DNA of 64,000 nucleotides from Eubacteriales bacterium (lineage in GTDB: Bacteria; Bacillota; Clostridia; Oscillospirales; SIG627), in contig JAZSON010000012.1 of the NCBI GenBank assembly GCA_045536965.1, positions 147,889 through 211,888 of the forward strand, given 5' to 3'. The position numbers were made by a program, and so were the translations under genes. Below are positions 29,374 to 35,340 of this stretch, piece after piece. Under the pieces are notes generated by a model. It did no database searches and had not been told where the DNA came from. It worked only from the letters and a program-made list of their open reading frames with translations. Within the stretch, counting starts at the first letter, position 1. Each line of letters begins with the position of its first letter.

Positions 29374-29558
29374 TTGTTTTTATGTAAATTGCACAAATGA
29401 TAGCCGGGAATTTATGGCGGGAATTTATGGAAGGATACGAAATTATATTTACCCCCTTGTTTCCGTGTATATGTTATGTTATCATATATTCACAGGGAAA
29501 AAAGGAGTTCTCCCGAAACAAACAACAGAATATTAAAAAGGAGGCAAAATTATGAAAA
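29374..29558 (+). repeat. Cassette leader, copy 2 (near-identical to 11988..12160)
   Basis: Same promoter-like element, hairpin and RBS as copy 1. Contains an extra 13-bp tandem duplication (gggaatttatggc gggaatttatgga). Confidence 0.85.
29457..29485 (+). promoter_or_regulatory. Candidate sigma-A promoter inside leader copy 2
   Basis: TTGTTT, 17 nt, then TGtTATCAT. Confidence 0.4.
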
Positions 29559-32500
29559 ATGCACGCAAACTCACCACGCAGTCATCCGGACAAGCTTTGT
29601 CAAAAAGCCGCAGAAAGCATCATGTTTTTGGTACAAGGGTCGTTTTGACCTTCCTCCTGTTGATTTCCTTGTGCCTCGGTACTGTGCCAATGTCTGTCTT
29701 TGCTACCGGGCTTTCTTCATCTCTTGGGGTCGCTTCTGCTTCGGAACCCACCATTCTGTATGAAAAAACCTTTTTACGCAGTGCGTATGAAAAGCATTTT
29801 TTATTAAGCAACGGCAAAAGCGTTGTATATAGCTATGACCAACCCGTGCACTACTTAAAGGACGGCGTTTGGACGGAGGTCGACAACACGCTCGTTTTTG
29901 AAAACGATTCTTACGTCAACCGTTCGGCGTCCTTCTCCGCTTCCTTTGCATCAAGTGCCGACAGTGACTCTCTTTTCTCGTTCACCATGGGCGATTACGG
30001 TCTTTCGCTTTCTCTCCCGGTGATGCAAACGGCTGTCAGCGCCGTCTCCCGCAATACCCTCTTGCAAGAGAGAAGCTTTGAGGGAAAAACTGCGGCGCAG
30101 GCAAACGAGATGGATATCACCCATTCGTCACTCAAGTATGAAAACCTGCTTTCGGGCATGGATATTGAGTACAGCTTGAGCGGCGGCGGTGTCAAGGAAG
30201 ACATTTATTTGGATTCGGCTGCCGCGTGGCAGGACTTGACCTTCTCGCTGACCCTTACCGCATTGACTCCGCAGCTTCTTGCAGACGGTTCTGTCAGCTT
30301 AAAAAATGCCGCTGGACAAGAGGTGTTCACCATGGCCCCCCCGTATATGTACGATGCGGCAGGTGAGATCTCCCATGCGGTCACGTATAAATTGACCTCA
30401 CGCAAAAACGGGTATAATCTGACCCTGGATGCCGACGAAAGATGGTTAAACGCTTCCAACCGCACCTATCCCGTCGTGGTAGATCCGAGCGTCAGCGTGT
30501 CGGGCAGCGGCAACGTGGTCGATACCATGATCCGCGAAGGCAAATCGACGGGGACGTACGGCTCCATGAAATATATGGTGGTCGGCTATTCCACCACCTC
30601 CTCCAACCGACGCAACCGCGGACTCATTAAAATGAGCACCCTCCCCACCATTCCGAGCGGCAACAGCGTCGTTTCCGCCACCCTGACCCTGCGTCAGCTT
30701 TCGGCGGCAAACGACAACTATTCGTGGTCAAACGACAATATCGCAAGCACCAACGTCGGACTTTCCAAGGTCACGTCATCCTGGTCAACCTCTACCTCGT
30801 GGTCAACCATGCCGACCTTTAACACGGCGTTTTTGGATGTAAGGCCTTTTAACGCTACGACCGAAAACGAAACAGCAACCTTTCACATTACCGAAGCGGT
30901 ACAAGAGTGGTATGCCGGTCAGGCCAATCACGGTCTTATGGTCCGCGCCACCGACGATGCCAACTCCTCTCCCGCCAACGTCTATCTGTCTTTCTATACC
31001 ACCGAGCACACCACCGCAGCAAACAAGCCGGTATTTGCTATCTACTATGCCTCGGCTACCGGAGACGAAACCGAACCGAACAATACCGCCGCTGCTGCTG
31101 ATGTGTTGAGCTTTACATATCCCTCTCTTGCGGTGATGGGATCCTATACCGGATTGATTGCAGATAGCGAGGACGTGGATTTCGTTCGATTCACTATGAA
31201 CGAAACGGTTACAGCAAACATCAAGCTCTTTGTTCCCGAGGAGGAAGAGTACACCGTATATGTGTACAATGATGCAGCCGGCTCCTATTTGATCAAATAC
31301 GGAGACGAAGGTATCGGTGAAACGGTAAACATTCCTCTGGTCTTGTATAAAGGCACAACCTATTGCATTAAGATTTTTTCTTCCCACGGCAGTTATTCAG
31401 CTGAAGATTTTTATACACTCACGATCAACTATGCAACGGTAGTGGACAGCAACGCGGTTTATACCATTAAAAACGTCAACAGCGGGAAAGCGCTTTCCAT
31501 TCCACGCACTACGTCTTCTACGGCTATCCAGCATACCTACGGCGGTGCGTATGAACAGAAATTTGTTTTGTCATACTCCGACGGCGGATATTTCATCAAA
31601 ACGTTGAATATGTCCGACCGCCCCGGTAAAAGTTTAGAGTTGCCGAATGAAAGCGACGTTAACGGTACCGATTTGACCTTTGCGCAAGATGCGAATGCGC
31701 CCCGCCAAAAATTTTGTTTGATCGAGTTACCAAACGGCAATTTCCACATCATGCCAAGCCAAAGCAGCAATAAATATTTGGAAGTGACCTATTCTTCTTC
31801 GGCAAACGGGGCAGTCGTGCAGATCTACCAAGACAGCGGACAGTCCTGTTTGGAATGGGAAATCACCAAAGTAGATAATTCACAACCGACTAAAAGCACC
31901 ATTTCGTTCTTCTCAATAGGCGATGATAATTTAGAAGAAACTGAAGAAAATGGCGGAAATATTAGTCCTTATTATTGGTTAATCAATAACACTTCTGAGT
32001 ACGAAGTTTGGAATACACGTACCCGTTTTGACCCAGAAATTTCAAACGATGCCCTTTTGGCAGAAATGACGGAGTCAGATGTAGTGTACATAGAAACTCA
32101 TGGAGATAAACCGGATAATTCACCAGTAGAGTCGTATTATTTTACTTATTATCACCCAAATGGTGAAAATCAAATTGTTTTGAATAGCGACATCGGCACC
32201 ACCTTTACCAATACAGCTAACACCACTACTAACACGCCATTCAGAGGAAACACCAAATGGACGATTATGATGGCATGCAGTCAGTTAAACAGCGGCACGA
32301 CAGCAAACTATTGGGCAAAAGCGTTGCTTGGAGATTACAACCGCATGCACGGCGTGCTCGGTTATTATGGTATAGCTCCGCAAAACTCTGGTGCAGCAAG
32401 AAGAATGGTGGATTTTTATGCTAATCAACGTGCTAGTTATAGTAATTCTATGTTAGAATCATGGCAATACGCAAACGAATCCTGCGGTTCCACATCAACT

Positions 32501-33133
32501 TGGGCGGTTGTAATGCATGAAACGTATTCTAACGATGCGGCTAATGTTGCAGACGAGAATATGTTCTCTGGTTTTGGTGCTGATTTGTCTGCTGGCTCTG
32601 CGGCTACAATATATCGGTACGCTTATGACGATGACGAAACACAGGTTCAATTTACAGCAAATCGCAGTTCCCAAGGTGCTCTTGCGGCTGTGCGCAACGT
32701 TGCTCTGACGTCAGAGCAAACAAATGCGGTAACTTGTATTTTGGGAACAAAAAACAACAGCCGCTTACAGATGGATGCTAACGGCAGAGTTATTTACCAC
32801 GATGATTCTATCAACTATTCTTCGAGATCTGCTGCCTGCAATCTGACTGATGCGCAGATAATTACTCAGGCGGAAAATCAACTTTCAGCCCTTTCACTGT
32901 TGCCTGACGAAGATTATATTGTCTCGGTCAGCCGGACCAGCAGAGAGCGCTTCGATGCCGAGACCGAATCGTTTGTCGAAAAAGAAATCGTTGGTTATAC
33001 CGTTTATTTTCGACACGCTTCAAACGGAAGGGCAATCGAAACAGAAGATGAAAATGAGGGTATATTGTTGCGCTTTACTGCCGACGGACTAAAGGATTTG
33101 GAGTATCATTGGGGTGAGCTTATTACCCAATAA
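29552..33133 (+). CDS. 1193-aa secreted mosaic protein: signal peptide, DNRLRE-like domain, PPC-like domain, ricin-type lectin, and a C-terminal domain with a clan-CD-like His/Cys pattern
   Basis: Signal: RRKHHVFGTRVVLTFLLLISLCLGTVPMSVFA|TG. Aa ~310-500: VDTMIREGKSTGTYGSMKYMVVGY...RNRGLIKMSTLPTIPSGNSVVSATLTL. Aa ~505-627: ETEPNNT..DSEDVDFVRF. Aa ~634-775: three QxF/W lobes. Aa 780-1193: VVYIETHG(850) and TIMMAC(909)S. Confidence 0.8.
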   Translation: MKNARKLTTQSSGQALSKSRRKHHVFGTRVVLTFLLLISLCLGTVPMSVFATGLSSSLGVASASEPTILYEKTFLRSAYEKHFLLSNGKSVVYSYDQPVHYLKDGVWTEVDNTLVFENDSYVNRSASFSASFASSADSDSLFSFTMGDYGLSLSLPVMQTAVSAVSRNTLLQERSFEGKTAAQANEMDITHSSLKYENLLSGMDIEYSLSGGGVKEDIYLDSAAAWQDLTFSLTLTALTPQLLADGSVSLKNAAGQEVFTMAPPYMYDAAGEISHAVTYKLTSRKNGYNLTLDADERWLNASNRTYPVVVDPSVSVSGSGNVVDTMIREGKSTGTYGSMKYMVVGYSTTSSNRRNRGLIKMSTLPTIPSGNSVVSATLTLRQLSAANDNYSWSNDNIASTNVGLSKVTSSWSTSTSWSTMPTFNTAFLDVRPFNATTENETATFHITEAVQEWYAGQANHGLMVRATDDANSSPANVYLSFYTTEHTTAANKPVFAIYYASATGDETEPNNTAAAADVLSFTYPSLAVMGSYTGLIADSEDVDFVRFTMNETVTANIKLFVPEEEEYTVYVYNDAAGSYLIKYGDEGIGETVNIPLVLYKGTTYCIKIFSSHGSYSAEDFYTLTINYATVVDSNAVYTIKNVNSGKALSIPRTTSSTAIQHTYGGAYEQKFVLSYSDGGYFIKTLNMSDRPGKSLELPNESDVNGTDLTFAQDANAPRQKFCLIELPNGNFHIMPSQSSNKYLEVTYSSSANGAVVQIYQDSGQSCLEWEITKVDNSQPTKSTISFFSIGDDNLEETEENGGNISPYYWLINNTSEYEVWNTRTRFDPEISNDALLAEMTESDVVYIETHGDKPDNSPVESYYFTYYHPNGENQIVLNSDIGTTFTNTANTTTNTPFRGNTKWTIMMACSQLNSGTTANYWAKALLGDYNRMHGVLGYYGIAPQNSGAARRMVDFYANQRASYSNSMLESWQYANESCGSTSTWAVVMHETYSNDAANVADENMFSGFGADLSAGSAATIYRYAYDDDETQVQFTANRSSQGALAAVRNVALTSEQTNAVTCILGTKNNSRLQMDANGRVIYHDDSINYSSRSAACNLTDAQIITQAENQLSALSLLPDEDYIVSVSRTSRERFDAETESFVEKEIVGYTVYFRHASNGRAIETEDENEGILLRFTADGLKDLEYHWGELITQ

Positions 33134-35265: not shown

Positions 35266-35297
35266 AACGGTATATACCCGCAGGATGAAAAATAAGA

Positions 35298-35340
35298 AAG
35301 GGTCTGTTGCGACCGATAGGTTGCAACAGACCCTTTTTGT
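35298..35340 (+). terminator. Rho-independent terminator ending cassette locus 2
   Basis: AAGGGTCTGTTGCgaccgataggttGCAACAGACCCTTtttgt. Confidence 0.75.

Follow-up and report, generated by a model that had tools for sequence, protein, structure and literature searches.

A predicted Sec-exported lectin protein and its tandem hypervariable membrane paralogs in a Clostridia genome: a putative polymorphic-toxin-like effector with an immunity array

Polymorphic toxins and the immunity proteins encoded beside them have been described in several Gram-positive systems. The catalogue of Zhang et al. (2012) includes Sec-dependent polymorphic toxins in which RicinB adjoins the toxic domain, as well as domains of caspase-like type with toxin or processing roles, and it describes layouts of a main gene with orphan toxin/immunity cassettes (PMC3482391). 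The Sec-exported WapA of Streptococcus suis contains a DNRLRE domain and is accompanied by orphan toxin/immunity pairs, as Rhs proteins are (PMC12704120). TsaI, the DUF443 membrane immunity protein of TspA, is present in 11 copies in Staphylococcus aureus RN6390, while the membrane-bound, outward-facing TipC is encoded by as many as 15 copies, in which a variable centre lies between conserved blocks at the 5' and 3' ends (PMC9484751). Conserved ends, a variable centre and recombination were reported by Garrett et al. for the tipC and esaG immunity arrays (PMC9484751). Here, a cassette at positions 29374-35340 of a 64-kb stretch of the genome of an Eubacteriales bacterium (contig JAZSON010000012.1, assembly GCA_045536965.1; the whole stretch is called the window) is compared with these systems. 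It contains the gene of a 1193-aa multidomain protein (the big protein) and two tandem genes of polytopic membrane proteins, paralogs B and C; two further paralogs, E and D, form a second locus (locus 2) at ~12-14.4 kb. CT refers to the C-terminal module of the big protein, and L003, L004, L005, L007 and L008 to contigs with relatives. The comparative data best fit a lineage-restricted cassette for antagonism, made up of a polymorphic-toxin-like effector of Sec type and an array of genes for membrane immunity proteins, all functions being putative, and we give this interpretation about an even chance of being right. Its basis is the type of export signal, the glycan-binding modules, the gene order, the exchange of CT modules, the loci devoid of the big gene, and the array-type evolution of the paralogs.

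The features of the cassette, in window coordinates, are as follows (TM, transmembrane; ORF, open reading frame).

29378..29551, plus strand: leader, with a putative promoter consisting of TTGTTT (29457-29462), a 17-nt spacer and an extended -10 element, TGtTATCAT (29477-29485).
29552..33133, plus strand: big gene, an ORF for the 1193-aa multidomain protein with predicted Sec-type secretion.
29552..29701, plus strand: signal-peptide region, aa 1-50, ending in PMSVFA/TG, in which the basic RRKHH is followed by a peak of hydropathy at aa 30-48.
30521..31036, plus strand: DNRLRE / CBM96-type domain, aa 324-495 (NCBIfam NF033679, 76.9 bits, cutoff 34).
31052..31435, plus strand: 'ETEPNNT' segment, aa 501-628, given no family; 48% identical to the ortholog.
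31436..31876, plus strand: ricin-type beta-trefoil, aa 629-775 (PF14200, 68.3 bits against a gathering score of 25.6, in 3 stretches).
31883..33130, plus strand: CT module, aa 778-1193, ~415 aa, in which H850 (in IExHG) and C908 (in ACxQLN) are invariant and the RMHGVLGY block is found.
33152..33172, plus strand: GC hairpin between the big gene and paralog B, GGGGGGCG-GCTTA-CGCCCCCC, 8 G-C pairs.
33202..34245, plus strand: paralog B, 347 aa, with an N-terminal TM helix, a predicted external variable domain of ~140 aa, the RSFSTAFLPQIDTG motif and a polytopic C-terminal module.
34294..35265, plus strand: paralog C, 323 aa, of the same plan.
35300..35339, plus strand: terminator, GGGTCTGTTGC...GCAACAGACCC followed by T5, with an 11-bp GC-rich stem by direct reading; a 40-nt palindrome in self-BLAST.

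A first-pass annotation, made from the letters of the sequence by a model, had given the coordinates of the three ORFs exactly and had also noticed the GC hairpin, which may be a partial terminator or a transcript stabiliser. It credited the unit with its own leader and promoter and with a strong terminator; the stem with T5 at 35300-35339 is indeed an intrinsic terminator that closes the cassette, whereas the promoter is a putative one, inferred through conservation.

The big protein appears to be exported by the Sec pathway, since its N-terminus combines a basic n-region, a single hydrophobic segment and VFA/TG; this reading of the sequence and its hydropathy agrees with the earlier call. 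The DNRLRE-like block and the three-lobed ricin trefoil named in that annotation were both recovered by profile searches at the scores listed above. In the ortholog on L005/L007, the DNRLRE domain matched NF033679 with 81.7 bits and Pfam CBM96 (PF24517) with 34.6 bits against 26 (for CBM96, see PMC9971899). The PPC-like block that had been placed next to the DNRLRE block was not confirmed: the PPC model matched neither the whole protein nor the isolated aa 501-633 at E <= 10, only the EPNxT motif of the ETEPNNT segment is PPC-like, and a weak match to DUF7490 (E = 0.008) was obtained. DUF7948 was weakly matched at aa 176-312, and at E <= 1 the Pfam matches of the 1193-aa protein comprised RicinB_lectin_2, DUF7948, DUF7490 and Lipase_GDSL_lke and nothing else. 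Rhs/YD repeats, LysM and DUF6531 were absent from the big protein in Pfam at E <= 1, and the Pfam scan detected no LXG or WXG100-type N-terminal domain.

In several respects this protein is similar to the Sec-dependent polymorphic toxins of Zhang et al.: the signal peptide is the sole export signal, adhesion and lectin domains, RicinB among them, lie near the CT, a partner gene follows directly downstream, and CT modules are exchanged with standalone cassettes (on L003/L004). Caspase-like His/Cys domains figure among the toxins or releasing peptidases of those systems. Unlike them, it has no Rhs, filamentous or stalk repeats and no recognisable releasing peptidase, its CT and partner fall into no listed Tox/Imm family, and the partner is polytopic with a large external domain. 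The WapA proteins, Rhs toxins that Bacillus and Streptococcus suis export through Sec, share the Sec signal, the DNRLRE domain (in their N-terminal wall-binding part), a polymorphic CT and orphan CT/immunity pairs, and some of their CT toxins act only outside the cytoplasm (PMC12704120). The present protein, in contrast, lacks Rhs/YD, LysM and DUF6531, is about one third the size, and has no SecF-like or SrtB genes seen adjoining it. The statement of the first-pass annotation that no characterised system has such a composition was therefore too strong, because Sec polymorphic toxins, the DNRLRE domain of WapA and tandem membrane immunity genes are all known. Judged by sequence, the cassette is no member of the WapA/Rhs, LXG, DUF443 or TipC systems; what is new is the CT module family, the polytopic partner family with its large, cassette-like external domain, and their combination with plain Sec export without stalk or cage.

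The C-terminal domain of ~410 aa that could not be assigned at first reading has no match in Pfam, NCBIfam or the sequences of the PDB. Its alignment consists of three sequences (the window protein, the L005/L007 ortholog and P0011), in which an invariant His follows a hydrophobic stretch (VVYIETHG / AAYIEGHG / VAFIDSHA, with HA in P0011) and so does an invariant Cys (KWTIMMACSQLN / KWLIISACDQLN / KWIIIQACSQLN), with a distance of 58 residues between the two in the window protein. Conservation extends to the block WAxALLGD..RMHGVLGY and to other His, Asp, Asn and Glu residues that are invariant. The order and context of the His and Cys motifs resemble those of clan CD peptidases. When the CT was compared by hhalign with a human caspase-3 sequence entered by hand, both motifs fell in register at a probability of 2.9%; the score was 24.5 against 14.4 +/- 2.5 for 300 shuffles, 1/300 of which reaches it. 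Neither Pfam nor the PDB gave a clan CD sequence match for the CT, and the caspase resemblance is taken as a lead and not as membership.

The membrane proteins form a family with a strongly uneven pattern of conservation. Paralogs B and C are 42% identical overall, and among 11 members identity is 59-92% over the N-terminus and TM1 (except for E, 32%, and P0012), 11-43% in the ectodomain (71% in one allelic pair), and 66-98% in the C-terminal module (40-46% to P0012). These ectodomain values bear out the variable segment reported in the first-pass annotation, and the motif RS[YF]S...LP.IDTG is present in B and C as claimed. The C-terminal module had been called identical between the copies; it is near-identical, with one V/A difference within the quoted stretch. 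The count of one plus four TM helices was approximately right, as hydropathy of B and C revealed an N-terminal TM segment, three further clear TM segments and a hydrophobic stretch of 37 residues that is either one long helix or a hairpin. Because hydropathy and the distribution of positive charges fit an N-in, C-in arrangement, the proteins are predicted to run from a cytoplasmic N-terminus through TM1 to an external domain of ~110-170 aa, then through TM2-TM4 and the 37-residue hairpin or long helix to a C-terminus inside. Profile searches with the three cassette proteins and their relatives, which recognised DNRLRE and ricin in the big protein, returned nothing for the CT or the membrane family in Pfam, NCBIfam, PADLOC, PHROGs and the PDB. 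DUF443 was not found at E <= 1 in B (two weak unrelated sub-threshold matches) or in C (no match), and P0012 gave no relevant match. A domain common to the big protein and the ectodomains was also considered and rejected, hhalign probabilities being below 1%.

Compared with the described membrane immunity proteins, the family shows both likenesses and differences. As proposed here, the toxin acts outside the membrane, the immunity protein faces outward and tandem paralogs recombine, as in TelC/TipC of Streptococcus (PMC6193138, PMC9484751); TelC is an LXG toxin exported by type VII secretion (T7SS) that acts in the inner wall zone, whereas export here would be by Sec. TipC has a probable lipoprotein signal peptide instead of the multi-TM module, and there is no sequence similarity. 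TspA/TsaI offers a secreted toxin followed by a string of non-identical membrane immunity genes, with a toxin-fragment pseudogene in the locus, but TsaI belongs to DUF443, has one conserved block and shows little recombination, and TspA uses the T7SS.

The Arg-Ser motif stands directly before TM2 in all family members except P0012 (RGYSS), and this observation bears on a non-antagonistic alternative: the big protein would be a secreted or wall-bound lectin-protease whose targets are glycoproteins of the diet or the host, or the surface of the producing cell itself, with the membrane proteins as docking partners or substrates. The juxtamembrane stretch RSYSSPMLPVIDTG is the candidate cleavage site in the substrate version; for example, cleavage at R-S-[YF]-S could shed the variable ectodomain, and the variation could result from phage or host pressure. 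A set of three modules of carbohydrate-binding type is usual in extracellular enzymes, the CT has its invariant His and Cys, and both loci lie among housekeeping genes without mobile-element, phage or defence signals (PADLOC, PHROGs, viral contigs, plasmid/phage tblastn). However, no peptidase family was matched, and the orphan-cassette layout at the ricin/CT junction and the locus without the big gene, both described below, are not what one would predict for an enzyme and the protein that anchors it or that it cleaves. Such a protein would serve no purpose in the absence of the enzyme, but membrane genes stand alone at several loci. This alternative is considered unlikely.

The cassette is very rare, and chance can be ruled out because it recurs in another species and in several metagenomes. 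A word-indexed search of 5.8 billion proteins yielded 9 members of the membrane family: 4 on the window's own 300-kb NCBI contig, 1 on another NCBI contig, and 4 on gut-type metagenome contigs of 1-2 kb. An exhaustive search of 1.84 billion cluster representatives with a hidden Markov model gave 3 clusters. For the CT module one relative (P0011) was found in the 1.84-billion index, and the ortholog was added via its context, which makes three sequences in total. Both the membrane family and the CT were absent from 185,579 species-representative genomes, and none was detected in viral contigs or, by tblastn, in plasmid/phage records. A literature search on the records carrying the cassette found nothing. 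The rarity of the cassette limits the general importance of the system, and structure prediction is hard with a handful of public sequences.

The conserved linkage is seen in contigs L005 (GCA_036720835.1, an NCBI metagenome-assembled genome) and L007 (from a fermentation metagenome), which represent a second species. In both, a membrane gene lies directly after the DNRLRE/ricin ortholog. The ortholog (> 1061 aa in L005) has the same domain order as the window protein and is 48% identical to it overall, with 60% in DNRLRE, 54% in ricin, 45% in the first part of the CT and 37% in the last part; the two big proteins diverge evenly along their length. The membrane gene encodes P0012, the most distant member of the family (24-33% identity to the window family in the N-terminus, ~41-46% in the C-module), and starts 13-17 nt after the big gene (17 nt in L005). 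On L007 the arrangement is followed by an aldo/keto reductase gene on the opposite strand. A hairpin, GGGGCGCCTGTGCCCC, analogous to the GC hairpin of the window, lies at the end of the big gene in both contigs and recurs after the membrane gene. In L005 a 55-nt repeat of the last big-gene codons with the ribosome-binding site (RBS) and ATG is found at 3165-3219 and 4310-4364, and a remnant is present at 3953-3992 of L007. As the 55-nt junction repeat ends the contig, L005 probably continues into a second tandem copy; since a second set of these last codons, with GGGGCGCCTGTGCCCC, the RBS and the ATG, stands behind the membrane gene, the unit in which the array is duplicated includes the 3' end of the big gene.

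The exchange of CT modules is seen in L003 and L004, metagenomic contigs of a relative. There, the product of an upstream gene that runs off the contig ends in a ricin lobe, then a Big_2-like domain and then a C-terminal region of an unrelated kind (aa ~130-385, CT1). It is followed by a gene of 136 aa and, ~130 nt further on, by an orphan ORF with a CT of the window type, P0011, which is 33-38% identical to the window CT at 98% coverage. The first ~150 nt of the orphan ORF are ~93% identical to the ricin end of the upstream gene, and the homology stops after the WVFE codons. In this relative the CT module is exchangeable at the ricin/CT junction. P0011 is followed by a gene of 197 aa whose product is single-pass, with one N-terminal TM helix, an N-in orientation and an external domain; homology of this protein to the membrane family could not be established, as only the 'IPFF.T' of TM1 aligned (P = 0.022). 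This combination of a main gene and an orphan cassette has its counterpart in Rhs/WapA (PMC12704120) and in polymorphic toxins at large (PMC3482391). CT1 and the 136-aa gene (L003 5-1611, also in L004) are a candidate for a second toxin/immunity pair, and since they match no known family, the parallel is architectural only. In all three CT contexts the position directly downstream is taken by a gene for a membrane protein with a predicted N-in orientation and external domain.

The second group of paralogs mentioned in the first-pass annotation is present 17 kb upstream of the cassette, with the following features.

11992..12153, plus strand: copy of the leader, recognised by its similarity to the leader at 29378.
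12154..12219, plus strand: big-gene remnant, in which the ATG and ~9 homologous codons are fused to the 3' hairpin arm and RBS; a 21-codon ORF.
12221..13363, plus strand: paralog E, 380 aa from this ATG, with a divergent N-terminus and a conserved C-module.
13412..14389, plus strand: paralog D, 325 aa, 74% identical to C.
14410..14433, no strand assigned: hairpin after locus 2, a perfect 10-bp stem with A-runs and T-runs on both sides.

Self-BLAST aligned 29378-29577 with 11992-12179 at 85.6% identity over 201 nt. The remnant codons read MKSLRNLNT where the big gene has MKNARKLTT, and the sequence that follows them, GCGCCCCCC...AAAGGAG...ATG, corresponds to the hairpin's 3' arm and to the RBS that precedes gene B (comparison with 29552-29580 and 33160-33201). 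Locus 2 is a derivative of the cassette without the big gene and with the same leader. Because ~9 codons of the big gene and the 3' hairpin arm are retained, locus 2 would have lost the big gene and not have lacked it from the start; the alignment is most simply explained by a deletion that removed the big gene from about its codon 10 onward, as far as the loop of the hairpin. The hairpin at 14410-14433 looks like a bidirectional terminator.

The putative promoter of the leader, TTGTTT/TGtTATCAT, was deduced from conservation at locus 2 and from alignment with L008, a gut-type metagenome contig (1-1309) in which the same leader precedes a single family member, P0006, adjoining the mntP region; the -10 element aligns there with TATAAT upstream of P0006. 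A simple consensus promoter scan did not list this promoter. It is followed by a 5' untranslated region of ~60 nt that ends in AACAACAGAATATTAAAAAGGAGG and the ATG of the big gene. An Rfam scan of 28800-29700 found no riboswitch in the cassette leader, a weak Mn match being its only result. The leader also has a 13-nt tandem duplication at 29406-29431 (gggaatttatggc / gggaatttatgga), ~25-50 nt upstream of the putative -35, of which locus 2 has one diverged copy; it could be the binding site of a regulator. In L008, a terminator-like hairpin is followed by sequence from upstream of the window's mntP (28950-29083), and relative to mntP the unit points the other way from the cassette in the window. 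The site beside mntP seems to house these genes repeatedly and to undergo rearrangement.

These loci raise the question of whether the linkage is incidental, in which case the membrane proteins would be independent, fast-evolving surface proteins (perhaps phage receptors or exclusion proteins) and the big gene would have been inserted behind their promoter in some genomes. An RBS-proximal element of ~25 nt, AACAACRGAAT..AAAAGGAGG, precedes the start of every membrane-family gene and of the big gene, so that the big gene may use a start region native to the membrane genes, and loci in which the leader is followed by nothing but membrane genes are no fewer than those with the big gene. Against this, locus 2 has kept big-gene codons and the hairpin arm, the linkage is found again in a species with a membrane protein as diverged as P0012, and the CT relative in L003 is likewise followed by a gene for an N-in membrane protein. 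An incidental linkage is very unlikely on this evidence.

The paralogs evolve in a mosaic fashion. Among codons for identical amino acids, 19-34% of the four-fold degenerate sites differ within the C-module and 60-92% within the centre (Fisher p-values from 4e-6 to 5e-5). Between C and D, the synonymous divergence (dS, Nei-Gojobori) is 0.10 in the N-terminus, 1.5-2.5 in the ectodomain, 0.18 in TM2-3 and 0.39 in the C-module, and the nonsynonymous divergence (dN) reaches 0.67 in the ectodomain, against 0.01 in the C-module. Since synonymous ages differ within one gene, either the ends were homogenised or the centres were imported by recombination. Over 2833 bp of the big gene, the near-identical strains L005 and L007 show 0 differences, whereas their membrane gene has 37, of which 31 lie within 290 bp of ectodomain DNA (binomial P ~ 7e-30), with dN/dS about 1. 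The paralogs are recombinational mosaics, and the part that codes for the hypervariable ectodomain, ancient or diverse, is swapped between otherwise identical strains. The same pattern of conserved 5' and 3' blocks, variable centre and recombination characterises the tipC/esaG arrays, although no homology exists and the PDB gave no match. A diversity-generating retroelement was rejected as the source of variation, because the 64-kb window has no second, template-like copy of the ectodomain DNA and because the changes between L005 and L007 cover every type, indels among them, with no bias towards adenine.

The same data bear on the possibility that the membrane proteins are targets or receptors of the lectin protein, the toxin gene being accompanied by resistant alleles and the ectodomain changing to escape the toxins of competitors. 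Bacteroidales BSAP toxins follow a similar receptor-replacement logic. Strains and loci without the big gene keep leader-driven membrane genes in the same mntP neighbourhood, the strong conservation of the TM module (dN against dS in the C-modules of C and D) suggests a function of its own, and the ectodomain changes while the big gene stays identical. However, at least six paralogs exist in NCBI records of the lineage (besides the four in the window, P0004, which lies on its 300-kb contig, and P0003, which lies on a different one), and one sensitive copy would be enough for killing; accumulation of copies would help an immunity role and would hurt a receptor role. A general housekeeping target is also contradicted by the absence of the family from 185,579 genomes and its 3 clusters among 1.84 billion representatives. 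Receptor replacement is regarded as improbable.

A further possibility is a Sec-dependent identity or recognition system, and not a toxin with its inhibitor, in which the lectin protein with its His/Cys module would read or cleave the hypervariable ectodomains, for instance at the R-S-[YF]-S site; we think this decidedly unlikely. In such a system, strain identity or a variable surface signal that is shed would be set by the recombining ectodomain cassettes. If true, it would be a ligand/receptor diversity system without a described counterpart in Firmicutes.

The effector/immunity interpretation can be put as a mechanism. The lectin modules would hold the big protein on envelope glycans of the producer or its neighbours. 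The CT would be the toxic part, conceivably a thiol peptidase with a His...Cys arrangement like that of caspases, and would act at the outer face of the membrane or in the wall of related Gram-positive cells. The membrane proteins would confer immunity, their external domains blocking incoming CT modules at the cell surface, and the extra paralogs, including those of the locus without the big gene, would protect against the variants of competitors. The GC hairpin may set different levels of toxin and immunity expression from one promoter. Toxicity, the site of action outside the membrane, immunity and this role of the hairpin are thus what we infer. The first-pass annotation had likened the cassette to either effector/immunity or ligand/receptor loci; the conserved gene order, the exchangeable CT, the derivative locus and the mosaic paralogs fit the effector/immunity side of the likeness best.

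Several points weigh against this interpretation. The CT has no match to a toxin or peptidase family (Pfam, NCBIfam, PDB sequences), and the big protein has no recognisable releasing peptidase, Rhs cage or other delivery device. The caspase likeness concerns a motif of ~15 residues that was spotted before the test, and the caspase-3 sequence was entered by hand. The AlphaFold models were unusable, with a predicted local distance difference test (pLDDT) value of 39.9 for the CT (2 sequences) and 48 for paralog C (10-sequence alignment); the Foldseek search of the CT model against the PDB, best E = 0.55, was noise and is meaningless because the pLDDT is too low, so that the structure prediction called for in the first-pass annotation was uninformative. 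CT exchange is documented for a single metagenomic lineage, present in two samples, and not for the window's species; neither CT1, the alternative module there, nor its 136-aa partner was matched by a known toxin/immunity family (Pfam, NCBIfam, PDB). Finally, and as the chief internal difficulty, L005 and L007 have identical big genes, yet the adjacent membrane gene differs at ~20 ectodomain residues, which is unexpected if the ectodomain must fit the cognate toxin, unless another copy serves.

If the effector/immunity interpretation is true, the cassette would provide a new extracellular-acting toxin module, possibly a thiol peptidase, together with a new polytopic class of immunity protein. 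It would join the few Gram-positive systems in which toxin and immunity protein meet outside the membrane, TelC/TipC being the main example, and would indicate that such systems can run on Sec export and lectin targeting without T7SS or Rhs cage. The ectodomain hot spot (31 differences per 290 bp against 0 per 2.8 kb), taken with the dS mosaic, would offer a clean natural example of segmental exchange through which immunity repertoires diversify.

The genes flanking the cassette include gpsA, mntP (163.7 bits) and those for a hexapeptide acyltransferase and for an aldo/keto reductase that has an Fe-S domain. Of the flanks named in the first-pass annotation, mntP and the aldo/keto reductase were verified, whereas the Mn riboswitch was not: the yybP-ykoY model (RF00080) matched 28878-29053 on the minus strand over its full length with 14.1 bits against a gathering score of 45 (E = 0.17). 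As this sequence is conserved in L008, it is noted here as either a divergent riboswitch or a false call. A 370-aa ORF without a Pfam match at E <= 0.001 lies upstream of gpsA (26220-27332, plus strand). Between the mntP leader and the cassette leader, a 54-codon ORF (MFYEIAALNRRIKADGAAF..., 29101-29265, minus strand) without a family match could be a gene remnant. At 1.5 kb from locus 2, on the opposite strand (8910-10649, minus strand), a 579-aa protein is encoded that has a signal-like N-terminus, a transglutaminase core (53.7 bits), Big_3, a long acidic tail rich in Gly/Asn/Asp/Glu and a C-terminal TM anchor.

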